Positions 3,590 to 40,850 are shown, counted from the stretch's first letter. The stretch: 64,000 nucleotides of DNA from Thermoanaerobaculia bacterium (GCA_963719365.1 OY970380.1:1038903-1102902), one strand, 5' to 3'. Program-made: numbers and translations. Notes: generated by a model from the sequence alone, not told the origin.

Positions 3590-5239
3590 ATGAACGCCTT
3601 CCCCATCAGCGACGCCGATCGCCTGCAGCTCATCGATGCGTTCGTCGCCGAGACCGATGACGTCCTCGACGAGATCGAGCAGCTTCTGCTGCGTCTCGAA
3701 CAGAACCCCGAAGAAGATCAGCTCCTGCACGAGATTTTCCGCGGCGTCCACACGCTCAAAGGCAACGCGGCGTGTTTGCAGTTCGATGAATTGACGCGCT
3801 TCGCACACGTCATGGAGGAGTTGCTGGATGGCATGCGCGAAGGACGGCTCGACGCCACCACCGCGCACGTCAGCCAACTGCTCGATGCCGCCGATGCACT
3901 GCGCGACATCGCGGTGCGCTCGGTGAACGGCGACGGCACGCTGAGCGAGCGGCAGGAAGAGCTCCTCGCGCAGGTCGCCGCGTGGCAGACCAACGGCGGC
4001 AAAACGAGCAGCACCCTCGCCGGCAACGGCAACATATCCGCGCAAGAGCCGGCGCGCGCATCGCGTCCGTCGCGCAGTCTCCGCGTCGGCATCGACAAGC
4101 TCGATCGCATGCTCAACCTCGCCGGCGAGATCGCCACGATCCGCGGCACGGTGCGGCAACTCGTCGAGCAGAGCGGCAACGACGAGAAGACGCTCGACGC
4201 CGTTCGCGAGCTCGATCGCCTCAGCTTCGACTTGCAGGAATCGATCATGAACGTGCGGCTCGTGCCGGTCGGGCCGTCACTTCGACATTTTCACCGCGTC
4301 GTGCGCGACCTCGCTTCGTCGCAGGACAAGCGCGTGATGCTCGTGCTCGAAGGCGAAGACGTCGAAGTCGACACGACCGTCATCGAGCAACTGAAAGATC
4401 CGATCACGCACATGATCCGCAACGCGGTCGATCACGGGATCGAACTGCCGAACGTGCGTCTTGGCAAGGCAAAGAACCCCATCGGCACGATCCGCATCGC
4501 CGCGGCGCACGACTCCGGCGGCATCATCGTCCGCTTCTCCGACGACGGCGCCGGCCTGAACGACGCCAAAATCGCCGAGCGCGCCCGCGCACTCGGGCTC
4601 GATCCCGAACGGATGTCGCGTCAGGATCTTTGGGACCTGACGCTCCGTCCCGGATTCTCGACCGCGAGCCAGGTCACCGATCTCTCGGGCCGCGGCGTCG
4701 GGATGGACGTCGTCCGCCGCAATGTCGACTCGATGCGCGGAACGCTCCGCGTCCACTCCGAGCCCGGCGCCGGCACGACCGTCGAGATCCGCCTGCCGTT
4801 GACCGTCGCGGTCATCGAAGGTTTCGCGGTCGGCGTCGCGGACGAGACGTACGTGATTCCGATCGACAACGTCATCGAATGCACCGAGATGCCTGTTGGT
4901 GGCAACGACGCCAGCGGAGTCATCGATCTTCGCGGCGAGCCGCTGCCGTTCCTCCGCATCCAGCGCATCTTCGGACTCGACGCCTCGCCGCACGCTCGTG
5001 AAAACGTCGTGGTTGTGGAGCACAGAGGAGGCGGCGGACGCGCCGGAATCGTCGTCGACACGCTCTTCGGAAGCAGCCAGGTGGTCATGAAACCGATGGG
5101 CCGCTTCCTGCGCCAGGTCGACGGCGTGGCCGGTTCCTCAATCCTCGGAAACGGGCGCGTGGCCCTGATCCTCGACGTCCAGCAAATCATCAACCGGGCT
5201 GCGGAGGCCGCGGCAACACAAGCAAGGAGTCACTCATGA
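3590..5239 (+). CDS. cheA: Chemotaxis histidine kinase CheA
   Basis: HPt motif HTLKGNAA, dimerisation/HATPase region ([20 protein letters not shown]) and C-terminal CheW-like domain. An in-frame TTG at 3584 is an alternative start. Confidence 0.9.
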
Positions 5240-6966
5240 GCTTCAATATCCGCCGCCGGCTCGTCGCCGGATTCCTCACGGTCGTCATCCTCGGCGCCGG
5301 CGTTTGCTTCGCCGTCCTGCAACTGCTCACCACCAGCATCCGCCAGCTCGAGAGCGTCGTCACCGTCTCCGACGCCATTCGCGAACGCGGTCTCAAGCTC
5401 CGCTTCGACATGATGACCATGAGCGACGGCATGCGCGGCTACCTCCTCGATCCGGAGGACAAAAAAGAGCTCCAGCGCAAGCGCGACGCCAACGAGGAGT
5501 TCAACAAGGATGTCCTCGAGATTCAGAGGCTGGCGCCCGCGGGCGAAGTTCGCGACCTGATCGGACGCGCCGCCGAGATGGACTCGCAGTCCGTCAACCG
5601 CCTGGAAGACGAAGTACTGCAGTTAGTCAGCGACAAGAAAATCGAGCTGGCAAAGCAGAAATACATCGCCGAATACCTCCCCGTCCGCCACACGCAGGAA
5701 GAAGTCATCGGCCAGATGGAGAAGGCCACCGACAAGCTGGCAACGCAGGCGTTCACCGCGGCGCAGAGCCGCTATCAAACGGCGCTCATCCTCACCTACG
5801 TGCTGGTCGCGCTCCTCGTGATCATCGGAACGATTCTTTCGATCTTGATCTCCTCGGCCATCGCCAAGCCGGTCGTTCGCATGGCGCAGTCGGTGCGCCG
5901 CGCGGCCAAAGGCGACGTCGGCGATACGCTGGAGTTCGACGATCGCGCCGACGAGCTCGGAGAACTGAGCCGGTCGATGAACGCGATGTACGGGTACCTG
6001 ACGTCGATGGTCGCGACCGCGGAACGCATCGCCGCCGGTGACCTGAGCGTCGACGTGCAGCCCCGTTCCGATGCCGACAGCTTCGGTATCGCATTCTCGA
6101 AGATGGTGGCGCGCCTCGTCGAAGTCATCGGCCAGGTTCGCAGCGCATCCGGCTCACTTTCGTCAGCGGCCTCGCAGGTGTCGGCCACCGCGCAGACCGT
6201 GTCCAGCGGCAACAGCCAGCAGGCCGCGGCGGTGCAGGAGACGACGTCGAGCCTCGAGCAGATGAACGCCTCGATCGCGCAGAACGCGCACAACAGCCGG
6301 CAGACCGAATCGATGGCTGTGAAGGGATCACGCGACGCCGAAGAGACCGGCGCCGCCGTGCAGGAAACGGTGGAAGCGATGAAGTCGATCGCCGCCAAAG
6401 TCTCCATCATCGAAGAGATCGCCTACCAGACCAACCTTCTCGCATTGAACGCCGCAATCGAAGCGGCGCGCGCCGGCGAGCACGGACGCGGCTTCGCCGT
6501 CGTCGCCACCGAAGTCCGCAAGCTGGCGGAGCGCAGCCAGAGCTCTTCGCGCGAGATCGGCGCACTCGCCGCCGCAAGCGTGAAAGGTGCCGACCGCTCC
6601 GGAACGCTGCTGTCCGAGCTCGTGCCGGCGATCCGGCGCACGTCGGAGCTCGTTCAGGAAGTGGCCGCGGCATCGAACGAACAGGCTGGCGGCGTGGCCC
6701 GCATCAATCGTTCGCTGATGCAGGTCGACCAAGTCACCCAACGCAACGCCTCGGCATCCGAAGAGCTGGCCGCAACCGCCGAAGAGATGGCCGCGCAGGC
6801 CGACGGTCTTCAAGGCCTCGTCGAGTTCTTCCGCATCGGAAACGAACAGAAATTGCCGGTAGCGCATAAGCCGGCCGTCGTCGCCGCAAAAGCGCCGATC
6901 GTCGTCAAGCCTTCGAAAGGCAACGGAAACGGCGGCGCGCACTACGCCAACTTCGGGAGCTTCTGA
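5236..6966 (+). CDS. Methyl-accepting chemotaxis protein (two TM, HAMP, MCP signalling domain)
   Basis: Highly conserved MCP core [46 protein letters not shown]-terminal TM, periplasmic region, second TM and HAMP. ATGA overlap with cheA. Confidence 0.9.
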
Positions 6967-7814: not shown

Positions 7815-8496
7815 CTACAAAACCGTAGCCCGCGCCCTTGCGGTGGCGATCATTTCCATTGCATGCATCACCTCGGCATCCGCGGCAACACTCTCTGCAG
7901 AAACGTGGCGCAAAGCGGTCAACGAGAATGCCGCCAGCCTCAAGAAAGGCGATTACAACAACGCACTCACGACAAGCGATCGCGTCCTCGCCGAAATGGT
8001 CAAATTCCTCGGCGCCGGCACAACCGAAGATGAAATGCTGGCCACTGTATTGACGCAGAAAGCGCTCGCTCAGGCCGGACTCGGAAACATCAACGAAGCT
8101 CTCTGGTATTGGTATATCGCGCAGGAGATTTCGCCGGCCGCGGCGAAGAGCGATCTCTCAGGCTTTGGCGCTCCCGGCGAATTTCTCAAACGGCATCCTT
8201 TTGTGATCGCGGATCCAAATCCTGGTCGCGGAACGACGCCGGCCCGTGTTCTCAAGCAGGTCGTGCCAAGCTTTCCGTCCGGCGCTTCGCGATTTGGCGC
8301 GGGCGATCTCATCGTCCACATCGTCATCGATCGCAATGGCTCGCCAACCTTGCCGCATATCGTTCATCCGCTTCCCGCGCCAACGCTTTCCTTCGTCGCT
8401 CTCGAGGCCCTGAAGCACTGGCAGTTCGCGCCCGCGAAGCAGAACGGCGACTCGGTTTCCTTCCCCTTCAATCTCACGGTTCATTACAAGCTGTAG
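7804..8496 (+). CDS. Secreted protein with TonB C-terminal-like domain
   Basis: Signal peptide (AIISIACITSASA), then C-terminal KQVVPSFPSGASRFGAGDLIVHIVIDRNGSPTL...ALEALKHWQFAPAKQNG resembling the TonB_C fold. Overlaps the preceding OMP gene by 11 bp. Confidence 0.6.
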   Translation: MFSNYKTVARALAVAIISIACITSASAATLSAETWRKAVNENAASLKKGDYNNALTTSDRVLAEMVKFLGAGTTEDEMLATVLTQKALAQAGLGNINEALWYWYIAQEISPAAAKSDLSGFGAPGEFLKRHPFVIADPNPGRGTTPARVLKQVVPSFPSGASRFGAGDLIVHIVIDRNGSPTLPHIVHPLPAPTLSFVALEALKHWQFAPAKQNGDSVSFPFNLTVHYKL

Positions 8497-13028: not shown

Positions 13029-14102
13029 ATGACACCGCGGCTGCAGCTTCTCGTCGTCGACGACTCGGCGGTCATGCGTCAGGCCATGATCGCCATCTGC
13101 CGCCGCGATCCCGGCATCGAAGTCAGCGTCGCCGCCGATCCGCTCATCGCCCGCAACAAGATGCGCCACAACCGGCCCGACGTGATCCTGCTCGACATCG
13201 AGATGCCGCGCATGGACGGCCTGACATTCCTTCGCCAGTTGATGGCCACCGATCCGATTCCGGTGGTCATCTGCTCGGCGCTGGCCGGACGCGGAACGCA
13301 GACTGCGCTCAAGGCGCTCGAAGAAGGTGCGGTCGAGATCGTGGCCAAGCCGCGCGTCGCGCTGCACGACTTCCTCAACGAATCGACGGAGATGCTGATC
13401 GAAACGATCCGGGCCGCCGCACACGCCCGCGTCCTCCCGCGCCTGCCGGCGATGGTCATCGAGAAGCGTCACTCTCCCGACGTCATCCTGCCGGCAGCGC
13501 GCGCGTCGCTCGCACGCACCACGCGCAAAGTCGTCGCAATCGGCGCATCGACCGGCGGCACCGAGGCGCTGCGCGAGATTCTGGAGAGCATGCCGGGCGA
13601 TGCGCCGGGCATGGTCATCGTGCAGCACATGCCCGAAGTTTTCACCGCCGCGTTCGCGCAGCGCCTGAATCAAACCTGCCGGATGGACGTGAAAGAGGCC
13701 GCCGACGGCGACCGCATCATCGACGGCCGCGCGCTCATCGCTCCTGGCAATCGCCACATGCTCGTCCAGCGCGACGGCGCTGAGTATCGCGTCGCACTCA
13801 ACGACGGCCCACTCGTCTCGCGCCACAAACCTAGCGTCGATGTCCTCTTCCGCTCGGTCGCGCAATCGGCGGGAAGCAACGCCATCGGCGTCATCCTCAC
13901 CGGCATGGGCAACGACGGCTCCACGGGCCTCCTCGAAATGCGCACCGCCGGCGCCATCACCTTCGCGCAGGACGAAGCATCATGCGCCGTCTTCGGAATG
14001 CCCCGCGAAGCCATCGCCTGCGGCGCCGTGCAATCGGTGCATTCGCTCAGCGCAATGGGAGGCGCAATTCTGTCGGCCAATGAGCGAATGCGGGGAAGGT
14101 AA
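13029..14102 (+). CDS. cheB: Chemotaxis response regulator protein-glutamate methylesterase CheB
   Basis: REC domain ([10 protein letters not shown]...[12 protein letters not shown]) plus CheB methylesterase motifs ([28 protein letters not shown]). Confidence 0.9.
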
Positions 14103-14108
14103 ATCGCC

Positions 14109-14345
14109 TCACCGCACGGTGACGCCCATGAGTTCTCTCATCTTCCGAACGTCTTCTACAGAATCACCACGACCCACCTTGATCCGCCCTTGGCGATCGA
14201 GGAATGAGCGTCTGGCAGCGCTTACCAGAACGCGGTTCCCCACCAACTCCCACTTCAACACATCGCCAGGTCCGACTGCCAGTGCCTTTCGAATTTCTTT
14301 CGGCACCGTCGTTTGATGGCGTTTTGTAATCGTGGATTTATTCAT
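14109..14345 (-). CDS. AbrB/MazE/SpoVT-type DNA-binding protein (antitoxin-like), no adjacent toxin gene
   Basis: MNKSTITKRHQTTVPKEIRKALAVGPGDVLKWEL matches the swapped-hairpin AbrB-type domain. Start placed at the internal MNK (14345) rather than the longer ORF start (14393). Confidence 0.55.
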   Translation of the reverse strand: MNKSTITKRHQTTVPKEIRKALAVGPGDVLKWELVGNRVLVSAARRSFLDRQGRIKVGRGDSVEDVRKMRELMGVTVR

Positions 14346-14389
14346 CGGGTCCTCTCTGAGCCTAGGTGGTTCCTGTTCCCGCCGCCGAA

Positions 14390-14540
14390 GCACTCGGGCG
14401 GGACGCCCGAGTGCCCGCGGGCGAAGACGCCCGCACTCCTCAGATTACCGCGAACGCAAAAGGAGTGCGGACGTCTCGTCCGCGGCCGGCGGGCGTCCTC
14501 GCCCGCCGGTGTGTCCCGACCGAAGCCGGCACGCTCGTTC
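14390..14540. other. Cluster of four stable GC-rich hairpins in an intergenic region
   Basis: cactcgggcg-gga-cgcccgagtg; gcgggcg-aaga-cgcccgc; actcct..aggagt; ccggcgggc-gtcctc-gcccgccgg. Lies between the exonuclease stop and the AbrB-like start on the minus strand. Confidence 0.3.
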
Positions 14541-14543
14541 TCA

Positions 14544-15365
14544 TCAAGAACACAGGCGAGAAACTCTTGCAGACAACCGCGCATCGCCGGTCTTCTCCGC
14601 CATCGCTGCGAATGACGATGTCGCTCCCTGCCAGTGCAGCTCTTCAACGTCATCGAACAGTGGCGCATCGATTCGCAGTGTTGCCAGGTTCTTGAACAGC
14701 AGGGCCAGTTCGCGGCGATCACCATCCAGCACCGAAGCGGGAAACTTCTCGATCGGACCGTGTCGCTTAATCAAATCCGCGGCCGTCTTTGCTCCGATGC
14801 GCGGAATGCCTGGATAGCCGTCCGCGGCGTCGCCGACCAGCGCGAGGTAGTCGGGAATCAGCGCAGGGGCCACGCCGAACTTCGCGCGGACGCCGGCATC
14901 GTCGCGGATCTGGCCGCTTTTGCGATCGACTTGCACGACACGGTCGTCCACCACGCATTGCGCGAGATCCTTGTCCGGCGTCCAGATGCAGACTTTCTCC
15001 ACACGTGAATCGGCTGCCGCGAGATGTGCCGCCGAGGCGAGGGCGTCGTCGGCTTCGAGCTCGATCATCGGCCAAGTCGTTACACCCATCGCCACCAACG
15101 CTTCTTCCAGCGGATGGAACTGCCGCCACAGGGCGTGATCGATTCCCGCGCCGGTCTTGTAGCCGGGCCAGAGATCGTTGCGGAAGGACTCGATGATGTG
15201 ATCGGTGGCCACGCCGACGTGCGTCGCGCCCCCTTCGAGCATCTGCACGACGGTACCGAGAACGCCCGCAACCGCGCCGAACGGCGGATCGCTCTTCTTG
15301 AAACGGCGGATTCCGTAGAAGTGGCGAAACAGCTCGTAAGTGCCGTCGATGAGGTGAACGATCAT
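14544..15365 (-). CDS. 5'-3' exonuclease / flap endonuclease family (Pol I N-terminal-domain-like)
   Basis: MIVHLIDGTYELFRHFYG (N-terminal catalytic region) and H3TH region LVGDAADGYPGIPRIGAKTAADLI. Start set at the internal ATG 15365 with GGAGG RBS; the 388-aa ORF has a non-homologous N-extension. Confidence 0.8.
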   Translation of the reverse strand: MIVHLIDGTYELFRHFYGIRRFKKSDPPFGAVAGVLGTVVQMLEGGATHVGVATDHIIESFRNDLWPGYKTGAGIDHALWRQFHPLEEALVAMGVTTWPMIELEADDALASAAHLAAADSRVEKVCIWTPDKDLAQCVVDDRVVQVDRKSGQIRDDAGVRAKFGVAPALIPDYLALVGDAADGYPGIPRIGAKTAADLIKRHGPIEKFPASVLDGDRRELALLFKNLATLRIDAPLFDDVEELHWQGATSSFAAMAEKTGDARLSARVSRLCS

Positions 15366-15374
15366 GTTCTTAGT

Positions 15375-15440
15375 ATGGGGGTGGGGAGTTGGGGGTGGGG
15401 AGTGGAAGTTAGAACTCCCACTCCCCACTCCCGACACCCC
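15375..15440. repeat. GGGGAGT-heptamer-based imperfect palindrome (G4-capable G-tracts on + arm, C-tracts on - arm)
   Basis: gggggtggggagttgggggtggggagtggaagttagaactcccactccccactccc. About 20-bp arms with one mismatch. Same family as 38965-39055. Confidence 0.5.
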
Positions 15441-15536
15441 ACTCCCCGTAAAGAATGTAAGGCCTTCGTGACGGACCTGTGTATCCGTCGAACTATCGCG
15501 AGATCCTGCCGTACTCATCGGCCAAGGAGAAACACC

Positions 15537-15698
15537 ATGGACTTCGTAGCGGTGCTGCTGTTGGTTGCGTCTCTTTCCGGTGTGACGGCGTTTGCGACGA
15601 CCGATCGAGGAGCGGGGCTCGATCCGAACGGAGGCGCTTCCGTGACCTCGGCTTCGGCGAATACCGACAAAGGATTGGGCGTCGATCCGAACGGGTAA
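15537..15698 (+). CDS. Small ORF 1 (53 aa): hydrophobic N-terminus + repeated G-x-G-(L/V)-DPNG motif
   Basis: AAGGAGA RBS 7 nt upstream of ATG. MDFVAVLLLVASLSGVTAFATTDRGAGLDPNGGASVTSASANTDKGLGVDPNG. Paralogous to small ORF 2. Confidence 0.45.
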   Translation: MDFVAVLLLVASLSGVTAFATTDRGAGLDPNGGASVTSASANTDKGLGVDPNG

Positions 15699-15721
15699 GG
15701 CGTCAGTCAAAAGCGGTCACG

Positions 15722-15785
15722 CGGAGGCGCGGAGATGCGGAGAAAAGCATCTTCGCGCCTTCGCGCCTTCGCGTCTTCGCGTGAC
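15722..15785. repeat. CTTCGCG-heptamer palindromic repeat (REP-like) immediately after small ORF 1
   Basis: gtcacgcggaggcgcggagatgcggaga-aaagca-tcttcgcgccttcgcgccttcgcgtcttcgcgtgac. Tandem CTTCGCG units with an inverted copy upstream. Confidence 0.5.
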
Positions 15786-15904
15786 ACGTCAACGTCTCGG
15801 CAAGCAAGAGCCGCGTATTCGCAACGACCGCGGCGTTGCGATCGATCAGATGGCGGCCGGTCCGCAATACTCACGAAGCTCATTTCACAATAGGAGAAAC
15901 GCCA

Positions 15905-15988
15905 ATGGATCTCGCAGCTCTGCTTCTGCTGATTGCCTCCCTCCTCGACGGCACCGACGCCGGACCCAGAATCGATCCTGAGGGTTGA
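15905..15988 (+). CDS. Small ORF 2 (27 aa), paralogue of small ORF 1
   Basis: AGGAGA RBS 8 nt upstream of ATG 15905. MDLAALLLLIASLLDGTDAGPRIDPEG shares N-terminal MD(F/L)xA(V/L)LLL(V/I)ASL and C-terminal (L/I)DP(N/E)G with small ORF 1. Below the 60-aa cutoff of the supplied ORF track. Confidence 0.4.
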   Translation: MDLAALLLLIASLLDGTDAGPRIDPEG

Positions 15989-15998
15989 GTTGACGCCA

Positions 15999-16048
15999 GC
16001 GCGGAGAACGCATCGTCGCGTTCTCCGCGCCTCCGCGTGAAATTCAGA
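15999..16048. repeat. Perfect 13-bp hairpin plus CTCCGCGTGA tail (variant of the CTTCGCG repeat family) after small ORF 2
   Basis: gcgcggagaacgc-atcgtc-gcgttctccgcgc followed by ctccgcgtgaaa. Confidence 0.4.
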
Positions 16049-16077
16049 AACGAGCCCCAACGTATACTCCCCACCTC

Positions 16078-16749
16078 ATGGGTCGCCTCCACCTCGGCAC
16101 GATTTTCGGCACCACCATCACGCTCGATTTCAGCTTCCTCCTGCTCATCGCGTTTTTCATCATCTTCAACATGCAGGCGATGGGGATGCCCAACGCGTTG
16201 CTGTGGGCGCCGGTGATTCTGGTCAGCATCCTTTTCCACGAATTCGGGCACGCCATCATGATCGGCGTTCTCGGTTTCGGATCGAGCTCCATCGTTCTCG
16301 AAGGGATGGGCGGCGCCACCTACAACGAGCGCCGCGCCAGACCGTGGCAGGATCTACTCATCAGCGCCGCCGGCCCGGCTTCGAGTTTCCTGCTGGCCTT
16401 TCTGACCAACCTGGTCCTTGCCAATGTTTCCTACGTCTGGCATGACCGCTTCCTCATCGCGCTCCTGCCGATGCTGGCGCAGGTAAACGTCTGGTGGGGT
16501 ATATTCAACCTGCTTCCGATCGGGCCGCTCGACGGCAACGGCATCCTCCGCAACTTCTTTCGACTATTTCTTCAGGAGCGGCTGGCCTTCACGATCTCGA
16601 TCTGGATTTCGATGTTGGTTGGGCTGGCGGTTTTCATCTACTGTCTGATCGCGCGGCAAATCTTCATCGCCATACTCGTCGCGTTTTACGTCCGGTCGAG
16701 TTGGATGCAGTGGGAGTTCTTCCGATCCCACAACCGCACGGACGATTGA
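16078..16749 (+). CDS. M50 family (site-2-protease-like) membrane metalloprotease
   Basis: HExxH zinc motif in TM helix (ILFHEFGHAIM) and the second conserved motif NLLPIGPLDG. Multiple TM segments; 223 aa. Confidence 0.85.
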   Translation: MGRLHLGTIFGTTITLDFSFLLLIAFFIIFNMQAMGMPNALLWAPVILVSILFHEFGHAIMIGVLGFGSSSIVLEGMGGATYNERRARPWQDLLISAAGPASSFLLAFLTNLVLANVSYVWHDRFLIALLPMLAQVNVWWGIFNLLPIGPLDGNGILRNFFRLFLQERLAFTISIWISMLVGLAVFIYCLIARQIFIAILVAFYVRSSWMQWEFFRSHNRTDD

Positions 16750-16793
16750 AACAAAACGGACGGAACTCACCTAAAATAGCCTCGCCAACCCGC

Positions 16794-19700
16794 ATGGAAG
16801 TCCATCCCCCTCATCTCGCGCATGCTCGAAGCGCGCTCGCCAAGTGGCTTCGCGGCGGCCGGACACGCGCCTCCCACGAATCGTTGCGAACGACCGTGGC
16901 CATCTTGCGTGCGCAGCAGGAAGCCACGCTCGACGGCATCCTCGTCGTCGATGACAAGGGCGCGATCCTCTCGTACAACCGCCGTTTTCTGGAGATGTGG
17001 GGCATCCCCGAGGATGCCGCGAAAGCCGCGGATGACAACGAGCTCCTCGGATTTGCATCGGAGAAAGTGAAGGACTGGGACGAGTTCATCGAGCTCGTCA
17101 ACCATCTCTACACGCATCCCGACGAAGTGCGCGGCGACGACACGGTCGTGCTGAAAGATGGCCGCGTACTCTCCCGATCCTCCGTACCGATCGTCTCCGG
17201 ACGACGGATTCGCGGGCGCGCCTGGTACTTCCACGACGTCACCGAAAGCGTCCGCAACGAAGCCATGCAGTCGGCGCTCTTCCGCATTGCCACGCTCAGC
17301 CGCGAGGCGCGCAACCTCAAAGAATTTTACGGCGCCGTCCATCGGGTCGTGGCCGGCCTCATGGAAGCCACGAACTTCTACATCGCCGAGTACGACGCAG
17401 AACGCGACATCGTCACGTTCCCCTACTTCGTCGACCAGTTCGACGCCATCGCTCCCGAAGGCCGGCCGGTCGGACATGGATTGACCGCGTACGTGCTCCG
17501 CACCGGAAAACCGCTGCTTGCCACACCCGAGGAATTCGAAGACCTCAAGAAGAGTGGTGAAGTCGAATCGATCGGTGCGCCGTCTGTCGATTGGCTCGGC
17601 GTTCCGCTGGCTACGGGCGATCGCACGTGGGGCGTGCTCGGAGCGCAAACGTACGACGAAAGCGTTCGCTACACCGAGCGCGATCGCGATCTCCTCGTTT
17701 TCGTCGCCCAGCACGTGGCCTCGGCCGTCGAACAGAAACGCCAGGAAGACGCCGTGCGCGAGAGCGAGCGCCGCTACCGGCAGATGTTCGAGAACAACCG
17801 CGCCGTGCAGATCCTCCTCCATCCCGACACGGGCGCCATCGTCGACGCCAACGTCGCCGCCGTCGAGTTTTACGGCTGGGACCTCGACACGCTGCGCTCG
17901 ATGCACATCTGGGAGATCAACACGCTCGATGAGGAAGCCATTCGGCGCGAGATGGTGAACGCGTCCCAGCAGAAACGCAGCTATTTCGTCTTCCAACACA
18001 GGCTCGCCAACGGTGACCTGCGCGACGTCGAAGTGCATTCCGGACCGATCGTCACCGGCGGCCGCACGCTTCTCTACTCGATCATCCACGACGTCACCGA
18101 GAGGAAGATCGCCGAGGAAGCGCTGCTGCTGTCCGAGCAGAAGTACCGCAACATCGTCGACTACGCATCGGTTGGCATCTATCGCTCGACGCCCGCCGGC
18201 AAGATTCTGATGGCCAATCCGGCCCTCGCGCGCATCCTCGGGTACGACTCCACCGACGAGCTGCAGGGACGCAATCTCGCCACCGACGTCTACCTCGACG
18301 AGCGCGAGCGCACCAACGCGCTGGAGCGCTTCGCCGCGAACGACTTCACGATCGAACAGGAATTGCTCTGGCGCAAAAAGGACGGCACGCCGATCTGGGT
18401 GCAGCTCAACGCACACGCCATCGACCTCCAGGCCGGCGCTGAAGTCTTCGAGGGTTTCGTCTTCGACATCACGGAGCGCAAGCTCGCCGATCAGCAGGTC
18501 GCCGCGGCGAACGCGCAGCGCAAAGCGGTGCTCGATGCAGCCACGCGCGTCTCCATCATCGCCACCAACCCGTCCGGCATCATCACAGTTTTCAACTCCG
18601 GCGCGGAACGGATGCTCGGCTACAGCGCGAGCGACGTCATCGGCGTCCGCAACATCACCGAGCTCCATCTCGAAGCCGAGCTCGATCAGCATGCGCGCCG
18701 CCTGGCGTTCGAGCTCGGCGAAAAACTCACCGGCTTCGAAGTGCTCGTGCGCCGCGCCGCGCGCGAGGGACTCGAAGAACGCGAGTGGACCTACATTCGC
18801 GAAGACCGCGAGCCGCTCACCGTTCTCCTGTCGGTCACCGCGCTGCGCGACGAGCACGGCCACCTCACTGGATACCTGCACGTCGGCACCGACATCACGG
18901 AACGCAAGGTGGCCGAGGAAACGCTACGGCAGCAGACGGCGGCGATGACGGCATCGATGGACGGCATCGGCATTCTCGACGGCCGCCTCGACTTCACGTA
19001 CGTCAACGACGCACTGGCGAAACTCTTCGGCTATCACGATCCGCAAGAGCTCACCGGCCGCTCGATCTGCGATCTTTACGAACCGCCCGAGCAGGTGCGC
19101 GTGATCACGAGTGTCGTCCCGCTCGTGCAGCAGCGCGGACGCTGGCGAGGCGAGGCCACCGGCGTCCGCAACGACGGCACCACGTTTCCGCTGGAGATCT
19201 CGCTGACGGCGATCGACGGCGGCGGCATGGTTTGCGTCGTCCGCGACGTCACCGAGCGCACGTATGCCGAGGAGCAGATCAAACACCTCGCGTACCACGA
19301 TGCATTGACGACGCTGCCGAATCGCCTGCTGTTCAAAGATCGCGTCACGGTCTCGATCTCGCACGCGCAGCGCCACAACGGCCGCGTGGCTGTCCTTTTT
19401 CTCGACCTCGATCGCTTCAAAGTCATCAACGATTCCCTCGGCCACAGCATCGGCGACCAACTCCTGCAATCGGTGGCTGCACGCGTGCAGTCCTGCGTCC
19501 GCGACAGCGACACCGTCGCCCGCCTCGGCGGCGACGAGTTCACGCTGCTCCTCCCCGATCTTGTGCACGCCGAGGATGCCGCGGTCGTTGCGCAGAAGAT
19601 TCTGGAAGCCGTCCGCTACCCGTTCCACATCGAAGGCCGCGAGTTCTACATCACCACCTCGATCGGCATCAGCGTCTATCCCGAGGATGGCCCGGACGCC

Positions 19701-20591
19701 GAAACACTGATCAAGAGCGCCGATACGTCGATGTATCAGGCCAAAGAGCAAGGCCGCGACAATTACCAGCTCTTCAATGCCTCGGTCAATGCAAGAGCCT
19801 TACAGCGCATTGCACTGGAGCACGGCCTGCGCCGCTCCCTCTCGCACAATGAACTGGCCGTACATTACCAGCCAATTTTCGACCTACGTACGAACCGCAT
19901 CACCGGCGTCGAAGCGCTCCTGCGCTGGACCGATCCCGAAATGGGCAACATTCCGCCAGCAACGTTCATCCCGATCGCCGAAGCCATCGGCATGATGATT
20001 CCGATCGGAACGTGGGCATTACGCGAGGCCTGCATCCAGGCCAAGAATTGGCACGACGCCGGCTTTAACACGCTGTCGCTCGCAGTAAACCTTTCGGTCG
20101 TCCAATTACAACAGATCGATCTGACGGAAATCGTCCGCGACATTCTCGCCGAAACCGGCCTGCCGCCTCGCCTGCTGGAGCTCGAGATCACCGAGTCCGG
20201 CGCCATGCTCAGCCCCGAATTGAGCATCCGCACACTCTATGACTTGAAGAAACTCGGCATCCGCATTTCCCTCGACGACTTCGGCACCGGCCACTCATCG
20301 CTCGCCTATTTGAAGCGCTTCCCGATCGACACGCTCAAGATCGACCAATCCTTCGTCCACGACATCACAAGAGACCCCGACACGGCCGCCATCGTCACCG
20401 CCATCATCGCCATGGGCCACAGCCTCCGCCTCAAAGTGATCGCCGAAGGCGTCGAATTCACCGACCAGGCCGTCTTCCTGAAACGCCACAACTGCGACCA
20501 AATGCAAGGCTACCTGATCAACGTGCCAATGCCGGCCGAGGAGCTGAGCGCAATATTGGCTGTGGGCGAGGCTAAGGCGGATGTGAGGTAG
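16794..20591 (+). CDS. Multi-sensor PAS/GAF - GGDEF - EAL signalling protein (about 1266 aa)
   Basis: Several PAS repeats (e.g. HDVTERK, FDITERK, TDITERK, RDVTERT boundaries), GGDEF active-site RLGGDEF, EAL domain (EALLRW, DDFGTGHSSLAYL, KIDQSFV, AEGVEF, QGY). Start set at ATG 16794; the longer ORF from 16494 overlaps the M50 gene. Confidence 0.9.
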   Translation: MEVHPPHLAHARSALAKWLRGGRTRASHESLRTTVAILRAQQEATLDGILVVDDKGAILSYNRRFLEMWGIPEDAAKAADDNELLGFASEKVKDWDEFIELVNHLYTHPDEVRGDDTVVLKDGRVLSRSSVPIVSGRRIRGRAWYFHDVTESVRNEAMQSALFRIATLSREARNLKEFYGAVHRVVAGLMEATNFYIAEYDAERDIVTFPYFVDQFDAIAPEGRPVGHGLTAYVLRTGKPLLATPEEFEDLKKSGEVESIGAPSVDWLGVPLATGDRTWGVLGAQTYDESVRYTERDRDLLVFVAQHVASAVEQKRQEDAVRESERRYRQMFENNRAVQILLHPDTGAIVDANVAAVEFYGWDLDTLRSMHIWEINTLDEEAIRREMVNASQQKRSYFVFQHRLANGDLRDVEVHSGPIVTGGRTLLYSIIHDVTERKIAEEALLLSEQKYRNIVDYASVGIYRSTPAGKILMANPALARILGYDSTDELQGRNLATDVYLDERERTNALERFAANDFTIEQELLWRKKDGTPIWVQLNAHAIDLQAGAEVFEGFVFDITERKLADQQVAAANAQRKAVLDAATRVSIIATNPSGIITVFNSGAERMLGYSASDVIGVRNITELHLEAELDQHARRLAFELGEKLTGFEVLVRRAAREGLEEREWTYIREDREPLTVLLSVTALRDEHGHLTGYLHVGTDITERKVAEETLRQQTAAMTASMDGIGILDGRLDFTYVNDALAKLFGYHDPQELTGRSICDLYEPPEQVRVITSVVPLVQQRGRWRGEATGVRNDGTTFPLEISLTAIDGGGMVCVVRDVTERTYAEEQIKHLAYHDALTTLPNRLLFKDRVTVSISHAQRHNGRVAVLFLDLDRFKVINDSLGHSIGDQLLQSVAARVQSCVRDSDTVARLGGDEFTLLLPDLVHAEDAAVVAQKILEAVRYPFHIEGREFYITTSIGISVYPEDGPDAETLIKSADTSMYQAKEQGRDNYQLFNASVNARALQRIALEHGLRRSLSHNELAVHYQPIFDLRTNRITGVEALLRWTDPEMGNIPPATFIPIAEAIGMMIPIGTWALREACIQAKNWHDAGFNTLSLAVNLSVVQLQQIDLTEIVRDILAETGLPPRLLELEITESGAMLSPELSIRTLYDLKKLGIRISLDDFGTGHSSLAYLKRFPIDTLKIDQSFVHDITRDPDTAAIVTAIIAMGHSLRLKVIAEGVEFTDQAVFLKRHNCDQMQGYLINVPMPAEELSAILAVGEAKADVR

Positions 20592-24944: not shown

Positions 24945-25033
24945 TACAACTCACGCGAAGACGCGAAGGCGCGAAGATCAAAGGGCAGGGCTCCCTTCGC
25001 GTCCTCGCGCCTTCGCGTGAGCGCCTTCGCGTG
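24945..25033. repeat. CTTCGCG-heptamer palindromic repeat copy
   Basis: cacgcgaagacgcgaaggcgcgaaga-[19 nt]-ttcgcgtcctcgcgccttcgcgtgagcgccttcgcgtgac. Inverted arms of the same unit seen at 15722-15785. Confidence 0.5.
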
Positions 25034-25035
25034 AC

Positions 25036-27150
25036 CTACTTCCGCCAGCCCCGCACCTTTTCCGCGACCGCCTCGGGTGTGAATCCGAAATGCGTTTCGA
25101 GATCGGCCAGTGGCGCAGAAGCGCCGAAGCGGTCGACGCCGATGACCAGGGCGTCGTGGTTGACGTACTTGTACCAGCCGGAGGAGCGGCCGGCTTCGAT
25201 GGCGACGATGCGGCTGCGGTCGCCGAGGATTTCGTTCTGGTAGTCAACAGGTTGACGATCGAAGAGGTCGAGCGATGGCGCGGAGACGACGCGGGCTCGA
25301 ATCCCTTCCTTGCGCAGCAGCTCGGCGGTGCGGACGGCCAGTGTCACTTCGGAGCCCGTGGCGATGAAGGTGAAGTCGCCGTCGGTGTAGCCGTCGAGCA
25401 CGTACGCGCCCTTCCAGACCTCGTGCGGATCGAAATCGGCGCCGTGAGGGATGATGTCGACCTTCTGCCGGGTGAACACGAGCAGCGTCGGGCCTTCGTG
25501 TTTGCTGCCGATCGCGTACGCCCACGCCATCCCCGTCTCCATGCCGTCAGCCGGCCGGAAGAGCGTCATGTTCGGGATCAGGCGGAGCGCGAAAAGCTGC
25601 TCGACTGATTGATGGGTTGGACCGTCTTCCCCGAGGAAGATGGAATCGTGCGTGTAGACGAAGATCGACGGGATCTTCATCAGCGCCGCCAGACGAATGG
25701 CCGGGCGCATGTAGTCCGAGAAAATCAGGAACGTCGAGCCGTGCGCGCGCAACGGACCGTAAAGAGTCATGCCGTTGATCTCCGCGCCCATCGAATGCTC
25801 GCGAATGCCGAAGTGCAGGTTCTTGCCTTTGAACTCATCGAACGGCGGCGGATCGTTTGTGTCGCCCTTGGCGCGCTCGATCGAACCGCCATTCTTGAAG
25901 TTCGTTTTCGTCGATGAGGCAAGATCGGCCGCGCCGCCGACGACGAACGGAGCGATCTCGCCGATTTTCTGGATTACCTGATTCGACAGCTCGCGCGTCG
26001 CGATCGCCTTGTCGGTCTTCCCCGCCTCGGCCAACTGCAGTTCGTAACCTTCCGGCAGCGCGTGCGACCAGTAGCCGTCCCACTCCGCGGCCAGTTGCGG
26101 ATTGCGCGCGCGCCAGTCCGCCATTCCTTTGTCCCAATGCTTACGCGCGCGAGCGAGTTTCTTCACCTTGCGCGTGAACTCGGCTTGCACTTCGTCGGGG
26201 ATGTAGAACGTTGGCTCCGCCGGCCATCCGAGCGCCACTTTCGTCGCCGCGGTTTCCTCGGGACCGAGAGGTTCGCCGTGCGCGCGCGAGGTGCCGTGAA
26301 ACTTCGGACTCCCCTGCCCGATCACCGTCTTGGCCATGATCATCGACGGCTTGTCGGTCACCTTCTGCGCTTTACGAATCGCTTTGCGGACGGCATCGCG
26401 ATCGTGGCCGTCGATCTTCTGCACATGCCAGTGCGCCGCTTCGAATCGTTTCTTCACATCCTCGGACATCGACAAGCGCTTGTCGCCATCGAGCGTGACG
26501 TCGTTGTCGTCGTAGAGGTAGATCAGATTGCCGAGGCCGAGGTGACCGGCGAGCGACGCGGCCTCGGAACTGATGCCTTCTTCGAGATCGCCGTCGGAAC
26601 AGATGACGTAGATCCAGTTCTGGACGGGCTTGAACGGATCGTCGGTGTTGAAACGCGCCGCCATCATCTTCGAGGCGATGCCCATCCCTACGCCGTTCGC
26701 GAATCCCTGGCCGAGCGGACCGGTCGTGACTTCGATGCCGGGCGCGTCGCCATATTCAGGATGTCCGGCGGTCTTCGAGCCCCACTGCCGGAAGCTCTTC
26801 AACTGATCGATCGTCATCTCCGGATAGCCGGTGAGATGCAGCAACGAGTAGAGCAGCATCGATGCGTGACCGGCGGACAAAACGAAACGGTCGCGGTCCT
26901 GCCACGATGGCTGCTTCGGATCGTGACGCATGAAATCGGTCCAGAGAACGAAGGCCATGTCAGCCATGCCCATCGGCGCGCCGGGATGGCCGGACTTCGC
27001 CTTCTCGACGCCGTCGATGGCGAGGAAGCGGATCGTGTTGACGCAAAGCTCTTCCAGCTTGTCTTTCGTTCCGATCTTCGGCTCGTTGTGCGATTCCGCT
27101 TCCGCGATGGCGGCGCTGGCCTCTGCCGCACCGCCTGTCTGTTCGTCCAT
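25036..27150 (-). CDS. tkt: Transketolase
   Basis: N-terminus aligns to TktA (..IDGVEKAKSGHPGAPMGMADMAFVLW..); TPP/pyrimidine-binding and C-terminal domains present. Start set at ATG 27150 with GGAGG RBS; the longer ORF to 27450 is a non-homologous extension. Confidence 0.95.
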   Translation of the reverse strand: MDEQTGGAAEASAAIAEAESHNEPKIGTKDKLEELCVNTIRFLAIDGVEKAKSGHPGAPMGMADMAFVLWTDFMRHDPKQPSWQDRDRFVLSAGHASMLLYSLLHLTGYPEMTIDQLKSFRQWGSKTAGHPEYGDAPGIEVTTGPLGQGFANGVGMGIASKMMAARFNTDDPFKPVQNWIYVICSDGDLEEGISSEAASLAGHLGLGNLIYLYDDNDVTLDGDKRLSMSEDVKKRFEAAHWHVQKIDGHDRDAVRKAIRKAQKVTDKPSMIMAKTVIGQGSPKFHGTSRAHGEPLGPEETAATKVALGWPAEPTFYIPDEVQAEFTRKVKKLARARKHWDKGMADWRARNPQLAAEWDGYWSHALPEGYELQLAEAGKTDKAIATRELSNQVIQKIGEIAPFVVGGAADLASSTKTNFKNGGSIERAKGDTNDPPPFDEFKGKNLHFGIREHSMGAEINGMTLYGPLRAHGSTFLIFSDYMRPAIRLAALMKIPSIFVYTHDSIFLGEDGPTHQSVEQLFALRLIPNMTLFRPADGMETGMAWAYAIGSKHEGPTLLVFTRQKVDIIPHGADFDPHEVWKGAYVLDGYTDGDFTFIATGSEVTLAVRTAELLRKEGIRARVVSAPSLDLFDRQPVDYQNEILGDRSRIVAIEAGRSSGWYKYVNHDALVIGVDRFGASAPLADLETHFGFTPEAVAEKVRGWRK

Positions 27151-40809: not shown

Positions 40810-40850
40810 GATTTTCTTCGCGTCTTCGCGTCTTCGTGTGAAACGCCTCT
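40810..40850. repeat. CTTCGCG-heptamer repeat copy after the HD-GYP gene
   Basis: ttcttcgcgtcttcgcgtcttcgtgtgaaacgcc. Confidence 0.4.

Follow-up and report, generated by a model that had tools for sequence, protein, structure and literature searches.

Organization of the locus

We analyzed a stretch of 64,000 nucleotides (the window) from a Thermoanaerobaculia bacterium (GCA_963719365.1, OY970380.1:1038903-1102902), in which, between positions 15366 and 20591, two small open reading frames (ORFs), smORF1 and smORF2, lie ahead of genes for an M50 protease and for a PAS/GAF-GGDEF-EAL protein. All coordinates are counted from the first letter of the window. The four genes are on the plus strand: smORF1 (53 aa, 15537-15698), smORF2 (27 aa, 15905-15988), the M50 gene (223 aa, 16078-16749), whose product resembles minimal-core site-2 proteases, and the PAS/GAF-PAS(x4)-GGDEF-EAL gene (1265 aa, 16794-20591; Pfam and NCBIfam). 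The gap between smORF2 and the M50 gene is 89 nt and that between the M50 and GGDEF-EAL genes is 44 nt. A first reading of the sequence alone (the sequence-only reading) had seen here a single signaling cassette made of peptide precursors, a processing protease and an output module for cyclic di-GMP (c-di-GMP). On comparing the interval with its relatives, that is, metagenome-assembled genomes of Thermoanaerobaculia or Acidobacteriota and soil metagenome loci (L numbers below), we came to favor, with reasonable though far from full confidence, a different view: that the interval holds separate units, adjacent by inherited gene order, and not one signaling cassette.

Two small coding genes of one family

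smORF1 and smORF2 are genuine conserved coding genes and paralogues within one family. Both have a Shine-Dalgarno sequence AGGAGA, at 15525-15530 for smORF1, where it is kept in all orthologues, and at 15892-15897 for smORF2, where it was recognized from the repeat family and the orthologues. The sequence AGGAGAAAC(A/G)CCA, a repeat family in the window, precedes both genes. Orthologues of smORF1 were found in L029, L032, L040, L041, L042, L076, and L077; among them, the ratio of nonsynonymous to synonymous changes (pN/pS) was 0.0-0.55, and every insertion or deletion was in frame and fell within the linker between the repeats. Orthologues of smORF2 were found in L029, L040, L041, L042, and L076, with a 27-aa counterpart in L077. 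Between the window and L076, smORF2 differed by three synonymous changes and a change of stop codon from TGA to TAA, and by nothing else. The gene was absent from L032 and three codons shorter in L042, and the nucleotides of its 3′ half hardly varied, so that in most pairs selection on the peptide could not be told apart from selection on DNA or RNA. In a database of 5.8 billion proteins, orthologues and paralogues of the small ORFs were retrieved with E values of 1e-19 to 1e-30.

The smORF1 product has a Sec-like leader of hydrophobic character (MDFVAVLLLVASLSGVTAFA) and then two repeats of the form D-x-G-x-G-[LV]-D-P-N-G, and it ends exactly with DKGLGVDPNG. A 46-nt direct repeat inside the gene encodes both DPNG units. 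The smORF2 product has a hydrophobic N-terminus and a single repeat, and ends with DAGPRIDPEG. In the tandem pairs of the family there is a second gene type, of which smORF2 is a short paralogue; full-length genes of this type with the same ending are present in L049 and L081. The sequence-only reading had called two paralogous ORFs of these lengths, each with an AGGAGA ribosome-binding site, the first with a duplicated DPNG motif; all of this stood, with starts shifted by 1 nt.

The leader of smORF1 has a 15-residue hydrophobic core, with AFA ahead of TTD, and the mature product is predicted to be TTDRG...DPNG (33 aa). An AlphaFold2 model was confident only for an N-terminal helix (residues 2-13), the remainder having confidence values (pLDDT) of 55-66, which suggests that beyond the leader the product would be a flexible peptide. 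On reading the translations, neither leader showed a lipobox or a cysteine. A profile search of the PDB with the peptides returned only designed beta-trefoils (E ≥ 0.003), with no stretch passing alone, and we dismissed these matches as compositional. On the minus strand, 15707-16060 is open for 117 aa, and in L029 a 72-aa gene is called there; we judged this ORF to be spurious antisense because substitutions match the plus-strand frame and because it traverses the repeat hairpins described below.

The DPNG-repeat peptide family

The wider family was found through a relaxed motif scan of contigs carrying close relatives of the M50 gene; a stricter scan, for ATG-first ORFs with the C-terminal motif, and tblastn had yielded no homologues. 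A profile search then returned 516 proteins at E values up to 10. The best 120 clusters of these were 51-129 aa long (median 70 aa), came from Thermoanaerobaculia/Acidobacteriota or soil metagenomes, had no Pfam domain and were named at source as hypothetical proteins only. Members share a plan in which a hydrophobic N-terminal leader is followed by one to six copies (mode three) of D-x-G-x-G-[ILV]-D-P-N-G. Among the best 120 clusters, an uncharged hydrophobic 11-mer lay near the N-terminus in 95, and 25 had a loop bracketed by cysteines (C..xDPxG..C), while 60 of the 321 motif instances directly abutted the stop codon. The sequence of the leader varies across the family, and the conserved part is the DPNG repeats that follow it. 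Members often occur in tandem arrays. No family model for these peptides was found in Pfam or NCBIfam, permissive thresholds included, and no description of the motif IDPNG in bacteria was found in the literature. The DPNG peptides are an undescribed family of small proteins of soil Acidobacteriota.

Members of only ~21-27 aa were seen in L073 (3685-3800) and L075 (~8028-8285), with a hydrophobic N-terminus of ~10 residues and one cysteine-bracketed loop, C-G-I-D-P-N-G-C. A leader of this length seems shorter than a canonical Sec signal requires.

A conserved bicistron of M50 protease and GGDEF-EAL protein

The M50 protein matched PF02163 with 48.8 bits, for a cut-off of 27.2. H54, E55, and H58 of its HEFGH motif (residues 54-58), an instance of the zinc-binding HExxH, were invariant in 17 homologues, and N144, P147, D152, and G153 of NLLPIGPLDG (residues 144-153) were invariant as well. 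In site-2 proteases, the NxxPxxxxDG (LDG) motif is the source of the third zinc ligand. The catalytic motifs are intact and intramembrane cleavage is predicted. In profile comparisons, the protein matched the site-2 protease MjS2P of Methanocaldococcus jannaschii (3B4R) over residues 4-206 (E = 6.7e-15) and SpoIVFB (E = 7e-6); it has no PDZ or CBS domain. The C-terminal tail QWEFFRSHNRTD (QWxFFRSHNRTD in homologues) was almost invariant, and the tail segment SWMQWEFFRSHNRTD, encoded at 16720-16746, remained near-invariant down to 60% overall identity. A partner protein may dock on this tail.

The gene that follows encodes a GGDEF domain (PF00990, 2.8e-54) and an EAL domain (PF00563, 1.1e-70), whose c-di-GMP signature motifs, RDSD...GGDEF (RxxD), EALLR, and DDFGTG, were intact in the translation; no hydrophobic segment was evident on reading it. 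The sequence-only reading had recognized both genes by their motifs and order, and had given the second protein one residue more. Downstream DNA was available for 24 genome loci, and in each of them this gene directly followed the M50 gene, usually after a gap of 40-90 nt, with 62-99% identity for the GGDEF-EAL protein and 56-100% for the M50 protein. M50 and GGDEF-EAL form a bicistron conserved across the class. The GGDEF-EAL protein was more conserved than the protease (for instance, 85% versus 70%), and when the window was compared with L002-L028 its identity was 82-96% where that of the adjoining M50 protein was 70-92%. Such conservation represents strong constraint for a multi-sensor signaling protein. 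Most likely, the protease and the c-di-GMP enzyme have a joint function. In the literature, we found no description of a site-2 protease with a diguanylate cyclase or with c-di-GMP.

A spacer of 9 nt separates a plus-strand TATACT element (16063-16068) from the M50 ATG downstream of it. Of the loci in the clade whose M50 identity is 70% or more, nearly all had the ACGTATACTCC box at this same fixed distance, no matter whether the gene upstream encoded a small peptide, was LOG-like, or was divergent and only ~40 nt away. There is no Shine-Dalgarno sequence before the M50 start. We infer that TATACT would be a −10 box and the M50 mRNA leaderless or nearly so; a scan with the sigma-70 consensus detected no promoter. 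Across the window, TATACTC was noticed 7-22 nt ahead of start codons, the genes concerned being M50, a 706-aa ORF and an 84-aa ORF (7 nt before its ATG); the sites lie at 16058-16068, 55467 (+), 51912 (−), and 27231 (+). The exonuclease gene upstream of the small genes has CATACT 6 nt ahead of its ATG. There is thus a hint that mRNAs without a leader, or with a short one, and with a TATACT −10 box would be frequent in this genome.

Linkage of the peptide genes to the bicistron across relatives

Since the set of species representatives was retrieved through the M50 protein, it is unbiased with regard to the peptides. A family peptide gene lay within 6 kb of the M50 gene in 5 of the ~22 species loci with enough upstream DNA, and in none of the loci from the deeper clades (52-64% M50 identity). 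Close to the window, L029 (M50 92% identical) had both small ORFs and L032 (91%) smORF1 only, and L033 and L004 (84-85%) had a single gene of 93-95 aa with four repeats. In L005, L008, L016, and L017 (70-77%), a three-repeat homologue of ~70 aa lay on the opposite strand. The peptide and M50 genes are thus co-directional in the clade of the window and divergent in the 70-77% clade. Within the latter, the peptide gene was directly adjacent to M50 in L038 and L059, and in L008 a 155-aa gene (SRPBCC-like by eye) stood between the two.

Two genomes carry the pair and the bicistron on different contigs. In GCA_034664845.1, the smORF1 orthologue and the 27-aa counterpart of smORF2 lie beside the exonuclease gene on JAXDGW010000084 (L077), where a similar hairpin and then an unrelated gene follow them, and the M50-GGDEF/EAL genes are on JAXDGW010000122 (L003). 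GCA_035482045.1 has a tandem peptide pair on DATHRD010000009 (L081) and its M50-GGDEF/EAL genes on DATHRD010000064 (L012). The pairs of L081 and L049 end with DKGLGVDPNG and DAGPRIDPEG, that is, with the C-termini of smORF1 and smORF2. As these pairs share both C-termini in the absence of M50, the two-gene peptide module predates adjacency to M50 and is independent of it. Tandem arrays without M50 comprised four genes in L043 and two each in L049, L060/L081, L071, and L077, and single members of the family were also found in unrelated contexts. No ORF with site-2 protease motifs or a GGDEF domain occurred within the 5-8 kb flanks of the unlinked loci scanned, which included L049, L060/L081, and L077 and left out L043 and L071, whose contigs are shorter than 2 kb.

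The small genes keep another neighbor, the divergent gene for a 5′-3′ exonuclease of 273 aa (14544-15365, minus strand; Pfam 5_3_exonuc_N and 5_3_exonuc). Synteny of the small genes with this gene was seen in L029, L033, L004, L040, L076, and L077, and it persisted in relatives whose M50 gene sits elsewhere. Judged by gene order, the peptide-M50 link is limited to one lineage. The sequence-only reading had expected the small ORFs and their synteny with M50-GGDEF/EAL to recur in relatives: the ORFs did so, and the linkage was found in the few loci given above, with varying orientation and with the parts split in two genomes.

Hairpins and palindromes around the small genes

Each small gene is followed, on the plus strand, by a GC-rich hairpin of the CTTCGCG family, as the sequence-only reading had noticed. 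The one after smORF1 (15716-15785), recognized by repeat analysis and folding, is built of the 8-mer units GCGCGGAG / CTTCGCGC and folds with −58 kcal/mol (z = −6.2 versus shuffles). The one after smORF2 is a perfect 13-bp stem-loop with a CTCCGCG tail (15999-16040), whose folded part, 15999-16030, reaches −37.4 kcal/mol (z = −5.9 versus shuffles). For the smORF1 hairpin, the plus-strand RNA (−58 kcal/mol) was more stable than the minus-strand RNA (−47.9 kcal/mol), the gain coming from G.U pairs, which is compatible with a role at the transcript level. This hairpin is likely a terminator or an mRNA-stabilizing element of the REP (repetitive extragenic palindromic) kind. In each related locus checked (L029, L033, L040, L076, and L077), a hairpin came after the final small gene, and L077 keeps it though no M50 gene follows. 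Among relatives, the sequence of the stem changes and a stable stem-loop stays in place. A terminator scan gave nothing beyond the expectation from shuffles.

The 8-mer unit CGCGGAG/CTTCGCG had 12 matches in the window for 4.1 expected, and none of 100 shuffles reached 12. Further CGCGAAG/CTTCGCG 8-mer hairpins or partial copies were seen at ~24950-25040 and 40816-40840, which suggests that the 8-mer element belongs to a dispersed REP-like family of short tandem units.

Between the start of the exonuclease gene and smORF1 lies a palindrome of TGGGGAG heptamers (15377-15446), defined by repeat analysis and RNA folding (−70 kcal/mol, z = −8.3 versus shuffles). A heptamer palindrome always occupied this place, in the window as in L029 (5312-5390), L040 (~5335-5480), L076 (~4090-4330), and L033 (5393-5520). 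The heptamer varied among relatives, with TGGGGAG, GTGAAGT/TAGAAGT, GTCGGGA, and GTCGGGT as units; the site is conserved, and the sequence of both arms turns over in concert. The sequence-only reading had described a palindrome capable of forming a G-quadruplex. The G-rich palindrome is indeed present, but its G-quadruplex capacity is not conserved, because the heptamer unit and the content of G-runs differ among relatives. With a permissive Rfam threshold, the palindromes matched microRNA precursors below threshold only, and we set these aside as generic hairpin matches.

Long tandem repeats of short units were seen in the intergenic region upstream of M50 in L014 (5269-5703) and L003 (5800-5990). 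They translate to reiterated MLECFVS or FDARVFR, and their repeat style is that of the elements in the window.

Upstream surroundings

A non-coding block at 15446-15480 (GAATGTAAGGCCTTCGTGACGGACCTGTGTATCC), ~65-100 nt upstream of smORF1, was nearly invariant, being near-identical across the window, L029, L040, L076, L033, and L004. The block may bind a regulator or serve the small-gene unit as its promoter. Further upstream are an AbrB/MazE-type antitoxin-like gene (14109-14393, minus strand) and a CheB methylesterase gene (13029-14102, plus strand), which is the end of a chemotaxis cluster. The block of che cluster, toxin-antitoxin module and exonuclease gene was syntenic in L029, L076, and L077.

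Separate units or one signaling cassette

In the explanation that we favor, separate units share the interval by inheritance. Separate transcription units are suggested by the −10-like box that M50 has of its own and by the hairpin after the last small gene. One unit would be the tandem pair of smORF1 and smORF2, each with its own Shine-Dalgarno sequence and its own 3′ hairpin, which probably terminates or stabilizes each small transcript. The peptides are probably exported: an extracytoplasmic location is made probable by the hydrophobic leader, the AFA-type site of smORF1 and the cysteine-bracketed loops in relatives. The leader would serve as an export signal only, and the functional part would be the exported, flexible repeat region, which would act outside the cytoplasm through its DPNG loops and could serve as a ligand, bind metal, or be a precursor that holds several copies of one peptide. 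The other unit would be the bicistron of M50 and PAS/GAF-GGDEF-EAL genes, probably transcribed from its own TATACT promoter and probably coupling intramembrane proteolysis to c-di-GMP turnover. A single juxtaposition of the two in an ancestor, one inversion, and several losses or translocations would explain the gene orders most simply. Several observations weigh against this explanation. The hairpins after the small genes lack a U-tract, and read-through into M50 is possible. Both leaders start with MD and carry no positive charge in the n-region, smORF2 has no obvious signal-peptidase site, and the assignment to Sec export is a heuristic one. In a set of 41 metagenome peptide loci, which was retrieved with an alignment centered on DKGLGVDPNG and is thereby biased to close clades, ~16 had M50-GGDEF/EAL genes alongside; the M50 genes of the metagenome peptide loci belong to the same two clades. 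Finally, in two clades, and despite the inversion, no more than ~1 kb separates the peptide genes from the M50 start, a closeness that could reflect selection for proximity.

We consider it unlikely that the adjacent M50 protease matures the small peptides and that the PAS/GAF-GGDEF-EAL enzyme is under the control of this cleavage or of its product. The parts do adjoin in the window and in two clades of relatives, an adjacency that outlasts the change of orientation; the protease is catalytically intact by its motifs; and the product of smORF2, 27 residues with one hydrophobic segment and a short tail, would have the shape of a substrate for site-2 proteases, enzymes that cleave signal peptides. 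However, most species, those of all deeper clades included, have M50-GGDEF/EAL without a peptide gene nearby, the pair and the operon are on different contigs in two genomes, and peptide arrays are found in unrelated contexts. Moreover, the promoter-like box of M50 and the hairpins separate the units, there is no lipobox, and conservation bears on the exported repeats and not on the membrane segment that a site-2 protease would cut. The sequence-only reading was right as to the genes and, within two related clades, as to their synteny; its joining of the three parts into one functional unit was not supported, and the case for functional coupling of the peptides with M50-GGDEF/EAL is weak. Quite unlikely, in our opinion, is a version in which DPNG peptides are exported signals, perhaps in the form of multi-copy precursors, recruited to M50-GGDEF/EAL in this lineage. 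The protease would then cut the smORF2 product of 27 aa or a leader retained in the membrane, or else would be gated by the exported repeats; its near-invariant cytoplasmic tail would pass the outcome on to the PAS/GAF-GGDEF-EAL enzyme. If this were true, regulated intramembrane proteolysis would tie an extracellular peptide to c-di-GMP.

Other readings give the peptides a different nature. It is very unlikely that the small ORFs are non-functional as proteins and act on M50 as attenuator leaders or regulatory upstream ORFs, or that smORF2 is a decaying duplicate. Their position just 5′ of M50 with a strong hairpin after each would fit such roles, as would the loss and shortening of smORF2 in L032 and L042 and the near-invariant nucleotides of its 3′ half, in which selection on the peptide is inseparable from selection on DNA or RNA. 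Yet homologues with the same motif and two to six repeats lie far from any M50 gene and on either strand, smORF1 has in-frame indels and a pN/pS clearly under 1, the only changes between smORF2 and its L076 orthologue are synonymous, with the stop retained as TAA, and L077 keeps the 27-aa counterpart with no M50 downstream. It is more improbable still that the repeats are calcium-binding ones of the RTX (repeats-in-toxin) type, or that the genes encode precursors of ribosomally synthesized and post-translationally modified peptides matured by an HExxH membrane protease, as in daptides. The core G-x-G-x-D, read from the sequence, resembles part of the RTX nonapeptide, a resemblance only, but nine members of the family had no Pfam match to HemolysinCabind (PF00353) or to any other repeat family at E values up to 10, and their repeats are ~21 residues apart, whereas RTX nonapeptides (GGxGxDxUx) are in tandem. 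As for daptides, the M50 protein weakly matches the NCBIfam model of their HExxH intramembrane protease (NF041824, E = 1.7e-4), but with 20.8 bits for a cut-off of 300, and no genes for modifying enzymes were present in any context examined.

Relation to known systems

Among known proteases, the M50 protein is closest in kind to minimal-core site-2 proteases such as MjS2P (3B4R) and SpoIVFB, with which it shares the HExxH and NxxPxxxxDG motifs, a length of ~220 aa and, for 3B4R, a full-chain profile match. Unlike them, its family has its own near-invariant tail and a GGDEF-EAL gene that always follows. The sequence-only reading had compared the locus with maturation of peptide pheromones by Eep. 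As with Eep of enterococci or RseP of E. coli, an M50 intramembrane protease is paired here with small peptides that have hydrophobic leaders. Pheromones of the Eep type derive from lipoprotein signal peptides; here, by contrast, there is no lipobox, the leader is variable and the exported repeats are conserved, the protease has no PDZ domain and the linkage is not conserved, and we abandoned the analogy. The closest functional analogy for the small genes would be Phr-like pro-peptides. Like the Phr peptides of Bacillus, they are precursors of ~40-70 aa with a signal-like leader and, in many members, a motif at the exact C-terminus; the differences are that no gene for a Rap/RRNPP-type receptor is adjacent, that the motif is repeated one to six times, and that the phylum is another one. 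Lastly, the hairpins resemble REP-like elements or hairpin terminators in being GC-rich, in following genes and in having dispersed copies. They differ in being made of tandem 7-8-nt units, in having no U-tract and in the turnover of the unit at a fixed position.

Thermoanaerobaculia have few cultured representatives, which makes functional testing hard. One result that does not depend on the cassette idea is an abundant family of very small peptides with repeat loops, apparently exported. Their tandem arrays and variable number of repeats recall peptides of signaling or of ecological interaction. In addition, the class-wide pair of a minimal site-2 protease and a highly conserved multi-PAS GGDEF-EAL protein suggests a possible connection between intramembrane proteolysis and c-di-GMP signaling.

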